DNA of 8,797 bases from an uncultured archaeon. Its GTDB lineage: Archaea; Asgardarchaeota; Jordiarchaeia; Jordiarchaeales; Jordiarchaeaceae. The stretch lies in assembly GCA_964510585.1 (NCBI GenBank), contig CAZECW010000164.1, positions 1 through 8,797 of the forward strand, in the 5' to 3' direction. Made by a program: the position numbers and the translations under genes. Every line of letters starts with the position of its first letter. The first letter of the stretch is position 1. Positions 3 to 8,797 of the stretch are shown here, piece after piece. The notes below the pieces were generated by a model. That model was not told the origin of the DNA, made no database searches, and was given only the letters and a program-made list of their open reading frames with translations.

Positions 3-386
3 CTAACTAATATTTCTAAACTTTTATCCGTTATTGTAAATGCGTATGATAAGATTGGTTCAAATGGAATCATCATTCTTTACTCTCTTTCAACCTTGTT
101 GGAACACGCAGATTTTCAGAAATCCTATAGTTTCATGACTGGGTTGAAAGCACTAACTGAGGAGAGAAACTGTCTAGGATTCACTGTCCTGACCAGCGGA
201 ATGCACCCTGAAATGCAAATAAACGCCTTCAAACACATAGTTAACGGAATAATCGAAATGCAGTTCAAACACGAGAATGAAACAACAACGCGAAAAATAA
301 GAGTCATAGGACTGGGAGCAAGACTAAACCTCCTTAACTGGAAAGAATTCACCATAACGCCAGACGGAATCAAGCTAGCCAAATAA
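3..386 (+). CDS. 3' part of a RAD55/KaiC-like (RecA-superfamily) ATPase-domain protein, truncated by the window start
   Basis: The frame is open from base 3 (LTNISKLLSVIVNAYDKIGSNGIIILYSLSTLLEHADF...) to TAA at 384-386, so the ORF-track start at 96 is internal. It has Walker-B-position 'IIILYSLSTLL', then 'TSGMH...HIVNGIIEM...RKIRV...WKEFTITPDGIKL', resembling the C-terminal strands of archaeal RAD55/KaiC-like proteins (recognised by eye). Confidence 0.65.
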   Translation, partial: LTNISKLLSVIVNAYDKIGSNGIIILYSLSTLLEHADFQKSYSFMTGLKALTEERNCLGFTVLTSGMHPEMQINAFKHIVNGIIEMQFKHENETTTRKIRVIGLGARLNLLNWKEFTITPDGIKLAK

Positions 387-632: not shown

Positions 633-1451
633 TTAAGTTTTCTTTTTCGTTGCCCCTTTTAGCTGGTTTACATATTCTTTCAATGTTTTGAGCATTTCTC
701 CCTCATCGTTATCGTGTTTCTCTTCTATGATTTTTATGATTTGGCTTCCCACTATGGCTGCGTCTGCTCCTTTTTCTACTATTGCTTTTACATGCTCGGG
801 TTTTGATATTCCAAAGCCTACAGCTAGAGGAATTCTTCCCCGCGTAATAGGAAGTGTTTTTTCAATTAGTTTAATGGTTTGTTCTTGTATCTTCTGTCGC
901 GCTCCCGTTACCCCATAGATTGATACAAGGTAAAGGAAGCCTGAAGTGTTCTCCACAATTTTTACTAGGCGTTCAGTAGGTGTGGATGGAGCTGCAAGAA
1001 ATATGGTGTCCACCTCGTATTTTTCAGCGGTTTTCCTATATTCCCCAGCTTCTTCTATGGGTAGGTCGGGAACAATTACCCCACTGATTCCTGAGGATTC
1101 GGCTACTTCAAAAAAGCTTTTGACCCCCATCCGGTAAATGGGATTATAATATGTCAGAATTACCAGTGGAGTATTGTTTCTCTGCTTGATTTCTTCCGCT
1201 ATTTCAAAAACTTTTCTGGGCGTAGTTCCAGCCTGCAAAGCCTTTGTAGTTGCAGTCTGAATTGTGGGGCCGTCAGCTATAGGGTCTGAAAAGGGGATTC
1301 CCAGCTCAACTATGTCTGCTCCTCCACGAATTAACGTGTCCGCAATGATGAGGGTGTCTTCCAGTTCCGGATAGCCGGCGGTAATGTAGGTGATTAGTCC
1401 ACCTTCACTTCGAGCCCTAAGTTCAGAAAATGCTTTCTCCAGTTCCCTCAC
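633..1451 (-). CDS. trpA: Tryptophan synthase alpha subunit
   Basis: Motifs [27 protein letters not shown] (catalytic Glu/Asp), [34 protein letters not shown] and [12 protein letters not shown] start overlaps the trpB stop (GTGA). Confidence 0.98.
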
Positions 1452-2662
1452 ATTTCAACCCCCAAATGTTTCGCCACCACTTCTGCGTCTTTGTCTCCCC
1501 TTCCAGATAGGGTTACCACAACTATTTTGTCTCTGCCCAAATTTTTGGCCAACTTCATGGCGAATGCCAAGGCGTGGGCGGGCTCAAGCGCAGGAATGAT
1601 ACCTTCACTCTTTGACAGTTCAAGGAAAGCATCTATTGCCTCTTCGTCTGTTGCGGCAACATACTTTGCCCTCCCTATACTTTTGAGAAAGGAGTGTTCT
1701 GGCCCCACACCCGGATAGTCTAGGCCCGCTGAAATACTGTGAGTGGTTAGGATCTGGCCATTTCCGTCCTGTATAATGTATGTTAACATTCCATGAAAGA
1801 CTCCCTCTTCTCCCCCGCAAAGCGAGGCTGCATGTTTCCCGGTCTCAATTCCCAGGCCTGCGGCTTCAACGCCATAAAGTTCTACTTGCTCATCGTCTAG
1901 GAAGGGGTGGAATGTGCCTATGGCGTTGCTTCCCCCACCCACGCAAGCCACGAGAGCGTCTGGAAGCCTTTTCTCCTTCTCCAATATTTGCTGTCTTATC
2001 TCATTTCCAATAACGCTTTGAAAATCCCTCACTATCATAGGGTAGGGGTGGGGACCCACAACGGAGCCTATCAAATAGTAGGTGTCCTGGACGTTGGTCA
2101 CCCAGTCTCTTAGGGCCTCATTGATGGCGTCCTTCAATGTTTTTGAGCCGGAGTTTACGGGGTGGACTTCGGCTCCCAAAAGCTTCATTCTAAAAACGTT
2201 GAGTTTTTGCCTCTCTATGTCTTCAGAGCCCATATATATTTCCGCTTTTAGTCCCAGGGCGGCGCAGGCTATGGCTGTGGCGACACCATGTTGCCCAGCT
2301 CCGGTCTCCGCAATTATTCTCTTTTTTCCCATTCTTTTTGCAAGTAGTGCCTGCCCCAACGTATTGTTTATCTTGTGTGCTCCTCCATGAGCCAAGTCTT
2401 CACGTTTAAGATAGATTTTCGCTCCACCAATTTTTTTGGTTAGGTTTTCCGCATAGTATGTGGGGGTGGGCCTTCCAGCATATTCCGCTAAGTAATATTT
2501 TAACTGTTTCTGAAATTCCTGGTCGCGTTTGGCTTCTAGGTATGCCCTTTCAAGTTCTTCACAGGCTGGCATAAGTGTTTCGGGTACGAATTGGCCGCCG
2601 TACTTTCCAAATTTACCATTTACGGGATAGCTTTTCAATTTCCCCTTTGGTTTAGACTCCAT
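1448..2662 (-). CDS. trpB: Tryptophan synthase beta subunit (TrpB1 type)
   Basis: Motifs [35 protein letters not shown] (PLP lysine), [35 protein letters not shown] and LSGRGDKD. Confidence 0.98.
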
Positions 2663-3320
2663 TTGTATCTACTTCCTTAGCATTTTTCACAAATCGATAA
2701 ACTTTTTCCAAGTCTTTAACTCCAGGGCTAGCCTCAACACCGCTGGAAACATCCACAGCGTAAGGCTCAACCAATGCTACTGCTTGCTTCACATTTTCCG
2801 GAGTTAGTCCTCCCGCAAGGATTAATGGTTCAGGATATATGGCTTCTCTCACCCGTCTACTCAAGTTCCAATCATGAATTCTCCCCGTACCTCCATACTT
2901 GCCTGGCACACTGGTGTCCAGAAGAACTGCGTCCAATATTTCAGCAGCTCTCACTGCGGCGTCCAATGTGTCCAGAGAACCATGTTGTGGGACTCCTACG
3001 GCCCCAATTATTCGGATGTCTGGATATCTTTCCCGCGTCTCCTGATAAATCTGGTTGGATGCGTGGATTTGTAGTGTGCTGGGGTTCAATTCCTCACAAA
3101 TTTTTTCTAGGTGGTTGAGACTGCTGGCAACCGTGACTATGACTGCCTCCATAAAAACTGGTACATTTCTCATCATTTCTTTTGCTCTATCAAGGGACAG
3201 GTTTCTGGGTGACTCAGGGACATTCACAACAAATCCCACCGCGTCCGCTCCAGCATCTATGACTGCTTGGAGGTCTCTAGTTGAGGTTACTCCACAGATT
3301 TTAACGCGAACAAGTCTCAA
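2652..3320 (-). CDS. trpF: Phosphoribosylanthranilate isomerase
   Basis: Motifs [32 protein letters not shown]...[21 protein letters not shown] and [13 protein letters not shown] start overlaps the trpC stop (TTGA), with GGTGGA upstream. Confidence 0.96.
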
Positions 3321-4099
3321 AACGATTCCACCAACTGCATCACTTTATCTCTTATGTTTTCAGACTCCATGATGGAGGTTCCAACGAGAAACGCATGGGC
3401 ACCACATTCTCTGAGGAAGCGAATATCCTCTGGCGTGTTTATGCCGCTTTCACTCACAACCACTTTTCCCTTCGGGTGGTGCTTGGCTAGAATATGCTTC
3501 GTAACTTCCAAGTTTACCATTAGTGTTTTTAGGTCGCGGTTATTTATGCCAACAAGGTCCGCTCTTGTTTTCACTGCTCTAAGAAATTCATCTTCACTGT
3601 GTGACTCCAAAAGCACCTCTAAACCAAAACTGTGAGCCTTCTCAATCATGCTTTGAACATTTCCTTCACAGTAACCCCTATCAAAGAGGGCTTGTATCAG
3701 AAGGATGGCGTCCGCCCCACTCCTATAAGCTGCTTCAATCTGAACCGGGCTCAGAACAATGTCCTTCATAAGTATTGGAACACTCACCCGGCTTCGAATT
3801 TCACCTATGAATTGGAGTTTCCCACCAAAATTTTTAGGCTCAGTGATTACAGATATGCCGACTGCTCCCCCCTCCTCTAAGTCCCTTGCAATTATCCCCG
3901 GAGGAGTATACTCTCTTAAGACCCCCTTGGATGGTGAAACAAACTTTATCTCGGAAATAATGGGTGCCCTAGCGCACCGTAAGACTGCTTCCCTTAAACT
4001 TAATCCAGCTGAAAGACGAAATTTTGGAATGTTATTGTAGTAGCCTTCTTCCACACGCTTGACTGCTTCTGCGGCTAAATGGTCTATGTAGTCAGGCAT
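3317..4099 (-). CDS. trpC: Indole-3-glycerol-phosphate synthase
   Basis: Motifs IISEIKFVSPSKG, GAVGISVITEP, PILMKD, GADAILLI, LVGINNRDL, VSESGI and AFLVGTSIM. Start moved to ATG at 4099 (MPDYID...), which follows GAGGA and overlaps the trpD stop. The track's 4150 start lies inside trpD. Confidence 0.95.
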   Translation of the reverse strand: MPDYIDHLAAEAVKRVEEGYYNNIPKFRLSAGLSLREAVLRCARAPIISEIKFVSPSKGVLREYTPPGIIARDLEEGGAVGISVITEPKNFGGKLQFIGEIRSRVSVPILMKDIVLSPVQIEAAYRSGADAILLIQALFDRGYCEGNVQSMIEKAHSFGLEVLLESHSEDEFLRAVKTRADLVGINNRDLKTLMVNLEVTKHILAKHHPKGKVVVSESGINTPEDIRFLRECGAHAFLVGTSIMESENIRDKVMQLVESF

Positions 4100-5153
4100 A
4101 CTTATCCTCATACTCCTCAAGTATTGATAGTTTTCCGCCGGATCTCTCAATCAAATTTTTCAATTTCTGGTATGCAGCCCCACTCTCCAAGGATTCCCTT
4201 GCCAGTTCTATTCCTTCATCTATGGTTTCAGCTCTTCCGCCAACTACCATCCCCGCCGCCGAGTTTAGAAGCACCATGTTCCTTCTTGGATCCTGACGTG
4301 GAAGACGGTCGCTTAACAATCTCACAAGAAGTTTAGCGTTCTCTTCAGGAGACGCCCCGCTTATCTCTTCTGGCTTAGCTATTTTGAAACCGAATTCTTT
4401 GGGCGAAATTTCCTTTATGACCACTTCTCCGTCTCTGAGCTGAGCTACCAGTGTTTTGCCAATTATGGAGATTTCATCCAATCCATCTAAGCCGTGTACC
4501 ACCATTGCTTCTTCGCATCCCAACTCTCTCAAAACTTGGGCTATGGGTTCAACCCATTCCCTACTGTAGACTCCCAGCACCTGAGCATTGGCATTTGCAG
4601 GGTTTGTTAATGGTCCGAGTATGTTGAAGACTGTGCGTATGCCTATTTCTCTTCTTGGCCCAATAGCGTGCTTCATTGCTGGGTGAAAGTTTGGAGCGAA
4701 AATGAATCCAACCCCTATTTTTTCAATGCTTTCTTCCACGGCTCTGGGTTCCATATTAAGATTGAAGCCGAGTTTCTCCAAGACGTCGCTGCTACCACTT
4801 TTGCTTGTGACTGAGCGGTTACCGTGCTTGGCGACAGGTATTCCAGCACCGGCGATAATAAAGGCCCCAGCGGTGCTCACATTAAAGGTTTTTATCCTGT
4901 CCCCTCCAGTTCCGCAGGTGTCCACCAGTCGACCATTGACCTTTGGATTAATGCGGTGGCAGAATTCCCTCATCACTGCTGCGAATGCCGATATTTCTTG
5001 GACCGTTTCACCCTTCATTCTGAGGGCGGTCAAAAAAGAGCCAATCTGAGCCTGTGTAGCGCCTCCTGACATTATTTCCTTCATTATGGCTGTTGCCTCA
5101 AAACTGTTCAGGTCAATTCCTTCAACCAGTTTTTGGATTCCCTCTTTAATCAT
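4092..5153 (-). CDS. trpD: Anthranilate phosphoribosyltransferase
   Basis: Motifs IGSFLTALRMKGET, DTCGTGGD...TFNVST, AKHGNRSVTSKSGSSDVLE, RTVFNILGPLTNPA and VVHGLDGLDEIS. The likely start is ATG 5153 (MIKEGIQKLV), downstream of GGTGAG; GTG 5165 is an alternative. Confidence 0.96.
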   Translation of the reverse strand: MIKEGIQKLVEGIDLNSFEATAIMKEIMSGGATQAQIGSFLTALRMKGETVQEISAFAAVMREFCHRINPKVNGRLVDTCGTGGDRIKTFNVSTAGAFIIAGAGIPVAKHGNRSVTSKSGSSDVLEKLGFNLNMEPRAVEESIEKIGVGFIFAPNFHPAMKHAIGPRREIGIRTVFNILGPLTNPANANAQVLGVYSREWVEPIAQVLRELGCEEAMVVHGLDGLDEISIIGKTLVAQLRDGEVVIKEISPKEFGFKIAKPEEISGASPEENAKLLVRLLSDRLPRQDPRRNMVLLNSAAGMVVGGRAETIDEGIELARESLESGAAYQKLKNLIERSGGKLSILEEYEDKYA

Positions 5154-5157
5154 AGTT

Positions 5158-5739
5158 TCACTCACCGTCCAAAAAGTTTTTAATCATTCTTTTTCCACCC
5201 CTGGTTAGGATTGATTCGGGATGAAACTGGACTCCCTCAATTGGATACTCAACGTGGCGAACCGCCATAATTTCTCCGCCATCTACTGACTCAGCAGTAA
5301 TCTCCAAGCAGGACGGTATTGATTCCCGTTCTCCCACCAAAGAGTGGTAACGAGTAGCCAAAAAGGGATTCTCCATTCCCCTAAAAACGCCCCGACCATT
5401 ATGTCTTATAAGGCTCGTTTTTCCATGCTTCAGGTTCTTGGCACCGGAAATCCTTCCCCCAAAAGTGGAGATAATTCCCTGGTGTCCCAAACAAACCCCC
5501 AAAGTGTTAACCCTGCAACTCAAACTTCGCAGGATTTCAGAACACACTCCAAAGTACCGCTCATCCTCAGGAGTTCCGGGGCCAGGAGAAATAATTATTC
5601 TGTCTGGAAATAGTTTTGCAGCCTTCTTCAATGTTATTTCATCGTTTCGATAAACAATTGGCTCCGCTCCCAGCTCACCCACATACTGTACCAGATTGTA
5701 AACGAAGGAGTCATAATTATCAATGATGAGAACCCTCAC
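5158..5739 (-). CDS. trpG: Anthranilate synthase component II (glutamine amidotransferase)
   Basis: Motifs LIIDNYDSFVYNL, IIISPGPG, GVCLGHQ (catalytic Cys), RYHSL and GVQFHPES (His-x-Glu). GTG start overlaps the trpE stop (GTGA), with GGAGGGTGGTGA upstream. Confidence 0.97.
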   Translation of the reverse strand: MRVLIIDNYDSFVYNLVQYVGELGAEPIVYRNDEITLKKAAKLFPDRIIISPGPGTPEDERYFGVCSEILRSLSCRVNTLGVCLGHQGIISTFGGRISGAKNLKHGKTSLIRHNGRGVFRGMENPFLATRYHSLVGERESIPSCLEITAESVDGGEIMAVRHVEYPIEGVQFHPESILTRGGKRMIKNFLDGE

Positions 5740-7161
5740 AGTTCACCACCCTCCGACAATTCTAATGCTCTGAGCAAAGCTCTTGCCTTGTGCTCAGTTT
5801 CAAACCACTCCTTTTCAGGCACCGAGTCAGCCACTATTCCCGCCCCAACCTGGATGAAGCACTTATCCCTGTCTGCAACCAGTGTCCTTATAGTTATGGC
5901 GAAATCCATATTACCATTGTAGGAAAAATAGCCAACAGCACCAGCATATGGACCCCTTCTTGTAGGCTCAAATTCTTCAATTAACTCCATAGCCCTCACC
6001 TTTGGGGCTCCCGAAACCGTACCAGCTGGAAAAACCGCTCTCAGAGCATCGTAGCAACTACAGTCCTCTCTAAGCTTTCCAACCACCCTAGAAACAATGT
6101 GTTGAACATGGCTATACTCGTGCACCTGCATAAATTCTGGGACGCAAACACTTCCAAAACGTGACACCCGACCCAAATCATTCCTAGCAAGATCAACAAG
6201 CATCACGTGCTCAGCGCACTCCTTCTCATCCGCCAAGAGATCCCTTGCCAAAACTCTATTTTTCTCCGGGTCTTCCACCCGGGGCCTGGTGCCAGCGATG
6301 GGAAAGGTTTCAACATTGCCCCGCTCAACCCTCACAAGCATCTCGGGACTGGAACCCACAATTTGCCTTTCCCCCATCTTTAAAAAATACATGTATGGGG
6401 AGGGGTTAATCTCACGGAGAGCCAAATAGAATCGGGTTAGGTCTCCCCTGAAATTGAAATCAAATCTTTTGGATAAAACCACCTGGAAAATGTCGCCGGA
6501 AAAAATGTACTTTTTGGCTCCCTCAACTGCTTCCTCATACTTTTCTTTTGTTATGTTAACCTTGGGACTGGTGAAAGATAAACTTCCCGGACCGTTTGGC
6601 TCTGCCAGCTCTGCCAATTCTCTGGAGCGGTCTTCTTCTCGGTAATAGTATAGGGTTAACCCTCGGATGTGGTCGAAAACCACGCCGTCGTCGTAAACTG
6701 CCATCTGGAGGTCTGGATATTTTAAGTCGTCCACCGAATGGTTGGGTAGTTTCTCCCAGTAGCGTATGGAGTCGTAGGAGATGTATCCAACGGCTCCCCC
6801 CACAAACCGTGATTTTTCAAGGTGGCTTTTGTAAGTTTTTCTCCCCAGAACTTTTTCCACAACTTTGAGGGGGTCACTGGATTTGATTTTGGTCTTCTCA
6901 TCGGATTCCATGTTTTGTATTGTTGTTTGGCCATTCTTTGAGGTTATGACCTGTTTGGGTGTAAATCCTATAAATGAGAATTGGGCTAGCTTCTTTGGCC
7001 CCTCCATGGATTCAAGGAGGTATGCATACTGGTATTTTTCGTGGATTTTCAAGAAGAGTTCTGTTGGTGAGAGTTTGGTTGATAATTTTTTGATGTGGAA
7101 CTGGCTAGAGGAGTGGTTCTTGTAGGTGTTCTGCGATTTGTGCCCAAAGGCTATGCCTCAC
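5736..7161 (-). CDS. trpE: Anthranilate synthase component I; proposed 474-aa product from GTG 7161 with a +1 frameshift after codon 5
   Basis: Motifs [70 protein letters not shown] and GAGIVADS make the identity near-certain. The frame stays open 5' of the track's TTG 7052 (...[37 protein letters not shown]) up to TGA at 7160-7158, with no ATG/GTG/TTG in that stretch. The start at 7161 is inferred. Confidence 0.85.
7105..7161 (-). CDS. 18-aa zero-frame leader [21 protein letters not shown], overlapping the trpE frame and containing one Trp codon
   Basis: Reads GTG AGG CAT AGC CTT TGG GCA CAA ATC GCA GAA CAC CTA CAA GAA CCA CTC CTC TAG, 9 nt downstream of AGGAGG. Confidence 0.7.
   Translation of the reverse strand: MRHSLWAQIAEHLQEPLL
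7144..7149 (-). promoter_or_regulatory. Putative +1 ribosomal frameshift site CUU-UGG (slippery Leu codon followed by a Trp codon)
   Basis: Same CUU-U slip as bacterial prfB (CUU UGA), with Trp in place of the stop. A +1 shift gives (TTT) GGG CAC AAA..., which is the trpE frame. Confidence 0.65.
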
Positions 7162-7170
7162 TGTGCTAAT

Positions 7171-7176
7171 CCTCCT
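7171..7176 (-). promoter_or_regulatory. Shine-Dalgarno sequence AGGAGG for GTG 7161
   Basis: Minus strand reads ctAGGAGGattagcacaGTG: a perfect SD core with a 9-nt spacer. Confidence 0.8.
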
Positions 7177-7208: not shown

Positions 7209-7243
7209 ATTTATACCCTTGTGAGCTATTTAAAACTTACGCG
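7209..7243 (-). promoter_or_regulatory. Archaeal promoter region of the trp operon; TATA candidates TTTTAAATA (7235-7227) and TATAAAT (7215-7209)
   Basis: Minus strand reads cgcgtaagTTTTAAATAgctcacaaggg-TATAAAT-c in the intergenic region 5' of the RBS. The sequence alone cannot show which box is used. Confidence 0.6.
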
Positions 7244-7257
7244 TACAAAAATGTACA
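7242..7257. promoter_or_regulatory. Tandem TRP-box-like operator (TGTACA-N4-TGTACG on the minus strand)
   Basis: One perfect and one 5/6 match to the TGTACA TRP box bound by TrpY in Methanothermobacter. The boxes are 10 bp apart, form the palindrome GTACA-N4-TGTAC, and abut the BRE position of the upstream TATA candidate. Confidence 0.55.
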
Positions 7258-7265
7258 TTAAAGGC

Positions 7266-7308
7266 GGGAAAAAACCCTCAAACAACCCCTACAAACACTC
7301 CCAAAAAA
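7266..7308 (-). terminator. Oligo-T terminator candidates downstream of the glycoside hydrolase-like gene
   Basis: Minus-strand T6 tracts at 7308-7303 and 7274-7269 (GGGTTTTTTCCC) in a G/T-rich segment after TAA 7351. Confidence 0.4.
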
Positions 7309-7350
7309 GCTTATTTTCAGAATACTCCCCACAGATAGAGGAGCGCGGAT

Positions 7351-8658
7351 TTAGTAGGTGAATACGTGTTTATTGAATGGTATGATAGTTGCTTTCTTTT
7401 CTTTCGTTGGTGGGGGTGTTCCAAGCAGGTTTCCTGCGGTGTTTGCAATAATTATCTCTATGATGTTTTCACCCTTCTGCACCAGATCTGTTACATCTAT
7501 TCTGTGCGGTGGCCAAAGTCTCGTACCGGCCTCTTTTCCATTAATTTTGACGGTGAATACGTTCTGGAACCCCTCACATTCCAATATGAGCTTCTTTTCT
7601 AGGTATTCTTCAACTAGGTTAAATTTCTGCTTTAGTGTGATGTCGCCACTATAGTTGGGAATTTCCCTCTCTACTTCATTTTTTTCTTGGGTAATGAATT
7701 TCGGCTCATCAATTTTTCGGTCTACAACCGCAAATTTTCCCACAAGCACGACTGGCTCAATGGCGTGATTGGTTGGAACATTATCCTTGTAGTTGGGGTA
7801 CCGGGTTTTAATAGTGATTTGGTTTCTTCCCCTCCTCAAATATTTCTTAACCTCCAGGAAACGGTTGCTTCGATCCCACAGGAAGCATTTTTGCGGTTCC
7901 TCCTCCACCCTGAACCCGTTTATGTAGACTTGGAATGGTTCCCCCAAATCCTCATAGACCAACTGCACCCTCTCTGGGATATGCCTCAATTCAAACTCGT
8001 TGGTCATCTGGTAATCGCTTCCAAGAGGTATGACCTCTGCGGAAAAATCGGCTCCACTCTCCTTCACCTTCTCCTCCAGTAAATCTAAAACCTCGAAGGG
8101 ACAATACTCCCTCAAATCAATGCCCAGGACAGCGGCGAGTGCGGGGAGCTGCGAGTACATTTCCTCCATGGGCATGTATCTTCCAACCGTCAGTAGTTTT
8201 TCACCGTTTTTCTTTTTCCCCTGGAATTCCACACTTTCTCCGACTTTTACTCTCCAAGGATCTAAAACCATGTAGTTGGTGGGGACCTCCACGCTCCACT
8301 TTGAAATGGTTATCGGTTCAAGGAGAGGCGGAGACTCGGCGGTGAGTTCGCGTCCCTCAAATATTATCTTGGGCTCAGAAATTCTTGAGTATCCCAAAAT
8401 TTTTTGGGTGTTTTCATCAATGCCCTCTATATTAACGTTTGAGTAAGTCAGGTGCCTTTTTTCTTTTCCCCTCCTCACGACGAAGTAAACGCCTTCGCAG
8501 GCTTCAAACATGTGCGGAATTATGGTTTTTCCCATTTCTCTACGGTAAACGTATACGGGTGCTATTTCTCCCGTTTCTGGAACCCATTTCTCAAGTCTAC
8601 CTGTGGCGTTTAGGATAATTTCTCCCTCGATTCTTTCTTCAGACAGGTTAGCCACAAA
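7351..8658 (-). pseudogene. 3' portion (435 codons) of a large GH106 (alpha-L-rhamnosidase)-like glycoside hydrolase gene interrupted by an IS insertion
   Basis: Contains FVANL...G.LEKWVPETGEI, FEACEGVYFVV, VYING...LRRGRNQITI, IEPVVLVGKFAV, NYSG and VKINGKEAGTRLWPPHRIDVTDLVQKGENIIEIIIANT. By eye these resemble the C-terminal beta-sandwich domains of GH106/GH2-like proteins. Similarity starts exactly at the IS end (TCAA|TTT GTG GCT AAC). The first 35 residues of the track ORF are IS-derived. Confidence 0.65.
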
Positions 8659-8797
8659 TTGACACTCTCCGCGACTAAAGTCGGGAGATTCTTGCTTCTG
8701 GCTCATCGGGAGCCTTCGAAGCAATGGGTGTGCCATCACCCAGTTAACACGCCCTTCCCTCAAAGGGAACGGCGTCTATGTTGGCACCCTCATGGGG
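8639..8797 (-). ncRNA. Putative TnpB reRNA (omega RNA): scaffold from the IS right end plus a guide from flanking DNA
   Basis: Four consecutive stem-loops (8775-8749, 8742-8725, 8722-8694, 8688-8666) end at TCAA. The predicted guide is the flank TTTGTGGCTAACCTGTCTGA. No tnpB ORF can be confirmed inside the window. Confidence 0.55.
8659..8797 (-). mobile_element. Right end of an IS200/IS605-family element (IS1341/IS605 type), extending beyond the window
   Basis: Minus strand reads ...AAGAAT-CTCCCGAC-TTTA-GTCG-C-GGAG-AGTG-TCAA. It has a subterminal hairpin, the GAAT guide tetranucleotide at the hairpin foot and a terminal TCAA cleavage site, matching IS608/ISDra2 right-end architecture. Confidence 0.85.

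Follow-up and report, generated by a model that had tools for sequence, protein, structure and literature searches.

How can a gene be translated when the only start codon served by a Shine-Dalgarno (SD) sequence opens a different reading frame? The question is raised by trpE on contig CAZECW010000164.1 (assembly GCA_964510585.1) of an uncultured archaeon of the Jordiarchaeia. The stretch analysed, hereafter the window, is this entire 8.8-kb contig (8,797 nucleotides, nt), which belongs to a 3.78-Mb metagenome-assembled genome (MAG) of 217 contigs. Its minus strand carries trpE-G-D-C-F-B-A in this order, according to the open reading frame (ORF) listing and domain searches, and trpE is preceded and overlapped by a short out-of-frame leader ORF. 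The original prediction for this locus was that TrpE can be made only through a +1 frameshift in the leader that senses tryptophan. Having followed the leader across genomes, we conclude that TrpE is probably made via a Trp-tRNA-sensing +1 frameshift at positions 7149-7144, where the leader reads CTT TGG.

The trpE reading frame and its leader

The gene encodes anthranilate synthase component I (TrpE). In the +1 frame it matches both PF04715 (Anth_synt_I_N, 2.6e-38, beginning at residue 29 of the trpE frame) and PF00425 (Chorismate_bind, 1.7e-98), and trpG, D, C, F, B and A lie downstream. The structure of S. solfataricus TrpE, 1QDL, matches the same frame with E = 1.3e-101, the alignment starting with 1QDL residue 6 on residue 24 of the trpE frame. 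The elements around the start of the gene are as follows.

7171-7176, minus strand: Shine-Dalgarno sequence AGGAGG for the leader start, with a 9-nt spacer to GTG
7105-7161, minus strand: leader ORF in the zero frame, 18 codons from a GTG start to the stop TAG 7107-7105, by direct reading
7158-7160, minus strand: TGA closing the trpE (+1) frame and overlapping the leader start (G-TGA), by direct reading
7156-7159, minus strand: internal SD-like GAGG in leader codons 1-2, a putative frameshift stimulator, 6 nt 5' of the slip codon
7144-7149, minus strand: proposed slip site CTT TGG, with TTTGG invariant in 53 of 53 distinct loci
5736-7145, minus strand: trpE coding sequence in the +1 frame after the shift, supported by PF04715, PF00425 and 1QDL
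7086-7143, minus strand: linker of ~20 codons between the slip site and the TrpE fold
7050-7052, minus strand: TTG, the first canonical start in the trpE frame (ORF list, 5736-7052)

Direct reading thus bore out every element of the leader that had been described beforehand. GTG 7161-7159 is the sole start with an SD sequence, and the trpE frame is +1 relative to the leader it opens. The TGG of CTT TGG is the single Trp codon of the leader, which stops 12 codons past it. The codon at the position of TGA 7158-7160 is TGA or TGG in relatives, and between TGA 7160-7158 and TTG 7052 the trpE frame of the window holds no ATG, GTG or TTG. A product crossing from one frame to the other is predicted to have 5 + 469 = 474 amino acids (aa), beginning MRHSL-GHKSQ....

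TTG 7052 was considered as the true start and rejected. It has no SD sequence, as the original prediction had stated, and lies inside the predicted first helix and downstream of P31 and F35, which are invariant in 16 homologues. A protein starting there would lose residues that are invariant in homologues and aligned to a solved TrpE structure, so that the codon makes a poor start candidate. The AlphaFold model of the product has a low mean predicted local distance difference test (pLDDT) score of 54.5 and was used for the N-terminal strand and helix only; its confident N-terminal elements are a strand at residues 21-24 and a helix at residues 31-41.

The linker that precedes these elements (7086-7143 and its equivalents in all loci) varies both in its sequence and in its length, is rich in A/C and poor in G/T, and has no structure; in the model, its first ~17 residues have pLDDT < 50.

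Conservation of the leader across genomes

Logan contigs from four independent hot-spring metagenome studies covered positions 7053-7176 without an indel, so the layout is not the product of a 1-nt assembly error. The only indels in these contigs fell in the intergenic stretch 7268-7314 of a ~95% identical relative. The same leader layout was found in five of five other genomes of the genus that carry trpE, one of them closed, as well as in the searched sister-family genomes with a trpE gene and in one Odinarchaeia genome.

A census of loci, made by scanning species-representative genomes and metagenome contigs and then by script, yielded 53 distinct trpE loci with the device, that is, a leader with NTT TGG, and trpE was in the +1 frame in all 53. 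Carriers are found in Freya-, Jord- and Odinarchaeia, many Bathyarchaeia, one Methanomethylicaceae MAG, Nitrososphaerota (including Nitrosopumilus, Nitrosocaldus and Nitrososphaera), Methanobacteriaceae and three bacterial MAGs. In agreement with the original prediction, these relatives keep a ribosome-binding site, a start, a few codons and NTT TGG, with a short zero frame and variable flanks. The device was absent from ~100 further trpE loci, mostly bacterial, and two bacterial matches (L083 and L153) look like chance.

The bacterial carriers, two Thermotogae MAGs (L062, L068) and one Acetothermia MAG (L089), have an archaeal-type trpE, which suggests that the gene moved horizontally into these lineages together with the recoding site. 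In all three, the same ..GGTGATCGN GTT TGG module ends a longer leader, with 12-14 codons before W.

Promoter geometry differs among the carriers: the distance from the TATA box to the leader start is 65 nt in the genus of the window, 40-44 nt in Bathyarchaeia and 22 nt in Nitrosopumilales-type loci. An SD-like word is present at -16 to -4 in most loci. In four Nitrosopumilales-type loci (L051, L107, L109, L172), exactly 22 nt separate the end of the TATA box from the leader ATG, which lacks an SD sequence. Given the usual archaeal promoter geometry, the trp mRNA of these loci is therefore probably leaderless, with the ATG of the leader at its 5' terminus.

The probable slip site and the interval of the frame change

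In the usual layout, a start codon and four more codons, the last of them NTT, precede TGG, and W is codon 6 in 43 of the 53 loci. T2 G3, G5 and T14 T15 T16 G17 G18 do not vary among these 43 five-codon leaders. Position 4 holds a purine throughout and position 6 either G or T; A8 and T9 are each kept in 79%, and N13 is free. The slip codon had been proposed to be CUU, and CTT is indeed found in the window and in 22 loci altogether, but the site is not specific for it: GTT occurs in 17, TTT in 10 and ATT in 4, so that NUU describes the family better. TTTGG is present in all 53 loci, though the Phe codons of the same trpE genes number 562 TTT to 590 TTC. Invariant T14-G18 with a free N13 are exactly the bases required for re-pairing from NUU-U to UUU with UGG in the A site.

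The loci themselves delimit where the frame must change. In the Bathyarchaeia lineages L035/L102 and L037, a TAG stands in the trpE frame directly before TTT (leader frame ... TTA GTT TGG ...), and in L005 and L010 the leader stops one codon after TGG. Together, these stops place the frame change within NUU-UGG-NNN, and NUU-UGG is the only conserved feature in that interval. Beyond it, the leader ends 1-26 codons after W (median 11 over the 53 loci), in sequence that is not conserved.

No canonical in-frame start occurs between the last trpE-frame stop and TTT in 30 of the 53 loci, nor anywhere before the conserved domain in 22 of them, the window included. The original prediction needs refinement for some lineages, which have a nearby in-frame GTG or ATG or are naturally hard-wired in frame. 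One such natural variant is a Nitrososphaeraceae MAG (L055) that reads GTG AGG GAT ATT TCT GGA (M-R-D-I-S-G...) in frame. This N-terminus, read from the sequence, is the one that trans-frame translation of an MRD-type leader is predicted to give, as though a single base were missing.

An SD-like element upstream of the slip codon

The original prediction had the leader layout right and missed a further element, a stretch complementary to the anti-SD sequence located 5' of the slip codon. In the closed genome of the same genus, the 16S rRNA ends in GGATCACCTCCT. Pairing of the 12 nt 5' of the slip codon with GGAUCACCUCCU had a mean energy of -8.0 kcal/mol, compared with -3.4 for controls consisting of 7858 12-mers from inside the same trpE genes, and energies of <= -8 kcal/mol were reached by 55% of leaders versus 4.3% of the control 12-mers. 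The conservation of leader positions 4-9 is accounted for by this complementarity. The element takes different forms. Leaders of Freya and Bathyarchaeia have GAGG/GGGG(N)ATC; in Nitrososphaerota, in other Bathyarchaeia and in the bacterial leaders it is GGTGAY, and Methanobacteriaceae have AGGAGTGA or GGCAGTGA. Even where 7 or 13-14 codons precede W, the element stays at a constant distance from the slip codon, which indicates that it belongs to the slip site and not to the start. By analogy with the internal SD sequence of prfB, it probably holds or biases the paused ribosome. We found no downstream stimulatory structure: a folding energy of -2.4 kcal/mol (z ~0) was obtained for the 60 nt that follow UGG, and there is no trend across the family.

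Proposed mechanism and alternative explanations

In the proposed mechanism, a ribosome would initiate at GTG 7161 and translate M-R-H-S-L, which would bring CUU into the P site and UGG into the A site. When Trp-tRNA is ample, UGG would be decoded, termination would follow 12 codons on and a useless 18-mer would be released in place of TrpE; the overlapping downstream trp genes would probably go unmade as well. When Trp-tRNA is scarce, the A site would stay empty and peptidyl-tRNA-Leu would slip from CUU to the overlapping UUU (7148-7146). GGG (7145-7143) would then be read next and the 474-aa TrpE produced, and the rest of the operon would probably follow through its overlapping junctions. The purine-rich anti-SD-complementary stretch may hold or bias the ribosome during the pause. 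More speculatively, the site may be too near the start for a second ribosome to load while the first is paused, so that quality control triggered by collisions would be avoided. We infer slipping itself, its efficiency and its dependence on Trp-tRNA, the last because UGG is invariant (53/53) across phyla of differing codon usage and trpE is the first gene of Trp synthesis. Archaea decode NNU codons with G34 tRNAs; the tRNA that reads CUU was not identified among the only 5-6 tRNAs that Aragorn returned for the MAG.

Several observations weigh against this mechanism. The SD-like element of the window is only GAGG, with a pairing energy of -5.6 kcal/mol with the anti-SD, and the SD-like cores lie 6-7 nt from the slip codon compared with the optimal 3 nt of E. 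coli prfB. In several lineages an in-frame GTG lies three codons before TTT, or an ATG or GTG one codon before it, and could be a direct start there. In one Bathyarchaeia locus (L183:301-390, P0068), the leader (MRNNIW) and trpE share one frame, an exception due either to degeneration or to an error of assembly. Variation at positions 4-9 has a period of three, a pattern that could also point to coding in the +1 frame (G-I-A). Counts of loci overstate independence, given their phylogenetic relatedness, and among the public runs searched, no RNA run is listed as carrying the stretch.

The potential direct starts lead to an explanation without any frameshift, in which the leader is an ordinary upstream ORF with a Trp codon that overlaps the true trpE start and, by occlusion, modulates initiation at ATA 7154-7152 here and at GTG or ATG elsewhere. 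NCBI's Prokaryotic Genome Annotation Pipeline (PGAP) does start trpE of a near relative (L182:301, GCA_030587375.2) at ATA, right after GTGA; many homologues have the in-frame GTG or ATG described above, and the internal SD-like element could be the ribosome-binding site for such starts. The position of ATA, however, is GTC or TTC in the sister family, and in L035/L102/L037 the TAG that directly follows the ATA-equivalent codon bars trpE-frame translation from upstream of TTT. The spacings in the window, 16 nt from the SD sequence to ATA and 1 nt from GAGG to ATA, also argue against initiation at this codon, as do the 22 of 53 loci that lack any canonical in-frame start. Moreover, a ribosome stalled at UGG would cover the direct start, giving the wrong regulatory sign, and occlusion does not account for the invariant T14 and T15. 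We therefore regard regulated direct initiation as unlikely. The coding interpretation of positions 4-9 was pursued as translation of the +1 frame from a GGN codon (motif G-I-A-F-G), and was rejected. The TAG of L035/L102/L037 falls on the third codon of the motif, the corresponding codons of other clades give V-N-T or V-N-V, and the bases under constraint fit the anti-SD. Two further candidates were set aside. Initiation at the TTG inside TT-TGG would use the third frame and leave the invariance of T14 and G18 unexplained, and this TTG is in frame with trpE in L045 only (a Thaumarchaeota MAG, in which it lies within TTTTGG). Transcriptional slippage does not fit T and G runs of just 3 nt whose length is not conserved.

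The shift at NUU-UGG might instead be real yet constitutive, or respond to a cue other than Trp-tRNA, such as general translation stress or tRNA modification state. Site anatomy demonstrates a slip site and not its regulation, and UGG, the sole codon of its box and decoded by one tRNA, may just be a slow codon in these organisms. Against this alternative stand an A-site UGG in 53 of 53 loci over phyla with very different codon usage, and the placement of the device on the first gene of Trp biosynthesis. A pattern scan of the genome for the same device at other genes gave 67 candidates, none convincing except trpE; many were of the TTTGGAGG type, in which GGAGG could be the ribosome-binding site of the downstream gene. 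The trpS gene (G000:C161:3996-5126) has an ordinary SD sequence and GTG start and no Trp-codon leader. We judge a shift indifferent to Trp-tRNA improbable, and still less credence is due to a gene that is broken or mis-assembled by a 1-nt indel, or to a truncated TrpE made from TTG 7052. The origin of the contig in a MAG of 217 contigs and the truncated 438-aa or 423-aa proteins output by gene callers might suggest such a defect. Against it stand the agreement of the four independent metagenome assemblies over 7053-7176, the layout shared with the closed genome of the same genus and ~50 other loci, and the loss of P31, F35 and the first strand and helix that initiation at the SD-less TTG would entail.

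Promoter, operon and neighbouring genes

Upstream and downstream of the leader and trpE, the window contains three further features of the operon.

7227-7234, minus strand: archaeal TATA box TTTAAATA, 65 nt upstream of the leader start
7242-7257, minus strand: inverted boxes TGTACA-N4-TGTACG (TGTACA-tttt-TGTACG) just upstream of the TATA box, by direct reading
633-5739, minus strand: trpG-trpD-trpC-trpF-trpB-trpA, from the ORF listing and domain search

At each of the six junctions in trpE-G-D-C-F-B-A, the genes overlap or abut (4-59 nt). This arrangement would fit coupling of the entire operon to the trpE frameshift, and the downstream trp genes are probably translationally coupled to trpE. 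Boxes of the TGTACA type are kept in loci of the same genus and the sister family and in several Bathyarchaeia trpE promoters. In M. thermautotrophicus, TGTACA is the TRP box. TrpY binds TRP boxes (PMC6737238), and the TGTACA/TGTACG boxes may be a TrpY-type operator that adds a transcriptional layer of Trp control to the translational one.

Two other ORFs were noted on the contig. Upstream of trpE on the same strand, 7351-8763 (minus) encodes 470 aa with a weak glycosyl-hydrolase-2 sugar-binding-like domain at the C-terminus only, and at the opposite end of the contig, 3-386 (plus) is a partial ORF for a KaiC-like ATPase.

Relation to known systems

The closest analogue is bacterial prfB, in which an SD-like AGGGGG precedes CUU UGA C. 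The trpE loci share with it a short zero-frame ORF with a +1 product, a P-site NUU followed by U that can re-pair at UUU, and an anti-SD-complementary element just upstream. A Bathyarchaeia leader, ATG GGG TAT C.. CTT TGG, even resembles prfB AGG GGG TAT CTT TGA. In prfB, the decoding rate of the A-site codon reports the abundance of the end product and the protein is made only after the slip, giving negative feedback; we propose the same logic for trpE. In contrast to prfB, where a release factor reads a stop codon, the proposed sensor is a sense codon, UGG, decoded by Trp-tRNA. The product is a biosynthetic enzyme, TrpE, and not RF2 as in the prfB gene family, the shift would occur at codon 5/6 directly after initiation, the SD-like core lies at 6-7 nt and not 3 nt, and the hosts are mostly archaeal. 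The two systems have no sequence homology, making the relation one of analogy and not of membership.

In having a short leader ORF before trpE whose Trp codon would sense charged tRNA-Trp, the device also resembles bacterial trpL attenuation. Unlike trpL, it has one Trp codon and not a tandem, its leader overlaps trpE out of frame, and its output would be a change of reading frame and not transcription read-through. Neither alternative hairpins nor a terminator are part of it: searches found no terminator-like site, and Rfam gave no match at E <= 1, Trp_leader included. To our knowledge, bacterial-style attenuation does not occur in archaea. A metabolite-dependent +1 shift acting as a feedback sensor, as proposed here, is known from antizyme (OAZ), which in contrast responds to polyamines, with the shift taking place at a stop codon and involving a pseudoknot. 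The step itself recalls hungry-codon frameshifting in amino-acid-starved E. coli, a +1 slip from an empty A site when an aminoacyl-tRNA is scarce, although that phenomenon is known as an error process. A 2016 recoding review treats hungry-codon shifting in this way, names no amino-acid biosynthesis gene that makes natural use of it and includes only a few archaeal recoding cases. In line with the original prediction, neither this review nor full-text literature searches yielded a description of a trpE frameshift. TrpY and Tar act on the same operon in response to Trp, but as protein-DNA control of transcription, whereas the trpE device would be translational and encoded in the mRNA.

Implications

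The proposed frame change has consequences for annotation. In a large protein database, the predicted N-termini of these proteins are truncated (MKIH..., MEGP...), begin at fortuitous ATG or GTG codons (MFG..., VFG...) or carry variable upstream extensions. The trpE gene is thus mis-annotated in many Bathyarchaeia, Asgard, Nitrososphaerota and Methanobacteriaceae genomes, the 438-aa and 423-aa calls and the ATA start of PGAP being examples. The site spans ~18 nt and is present in cultivable groups (Methanobacterium, Nitrosopumilus), which makes it directly testable.

The leader would represent an autoregulatory +1 frameshift that uses a sense codon as its sensor, decoded by the aminoacyl-tRNA of the pathway's own product. 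On balance, and with more reserve than for the shift in the window, we favour the view that this is an ancient recoding switch shared across phyla, in which archaea gauge charged tRNA-Trp through +1 frameshifting at NUU-UGG, within the opening codons of the trp mRNA, and the first natural hungry-codon frameshift to serve as the on-switch of amino-acid biosynthesis. If so, it would add a new type of sensor, a sense codon and its aminoacyl-tRNA, to the short list of autoregulatory frameshifts (RF2, antizyme), and other amino acids, as well as aminoacyl-tRNA synthetase genes, may follow the same principle. Little else is known of how archaea regulate their trp genes, and a 'third mechanism' has been called for (PMC6737238), for which the NUU-UGG switch could be a candidate. 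It would be an archaeal, ribosome-based counterpart of the classic bacterial trp attenuator and would account for control of the trp operon in lineages without TrpY or Tar.

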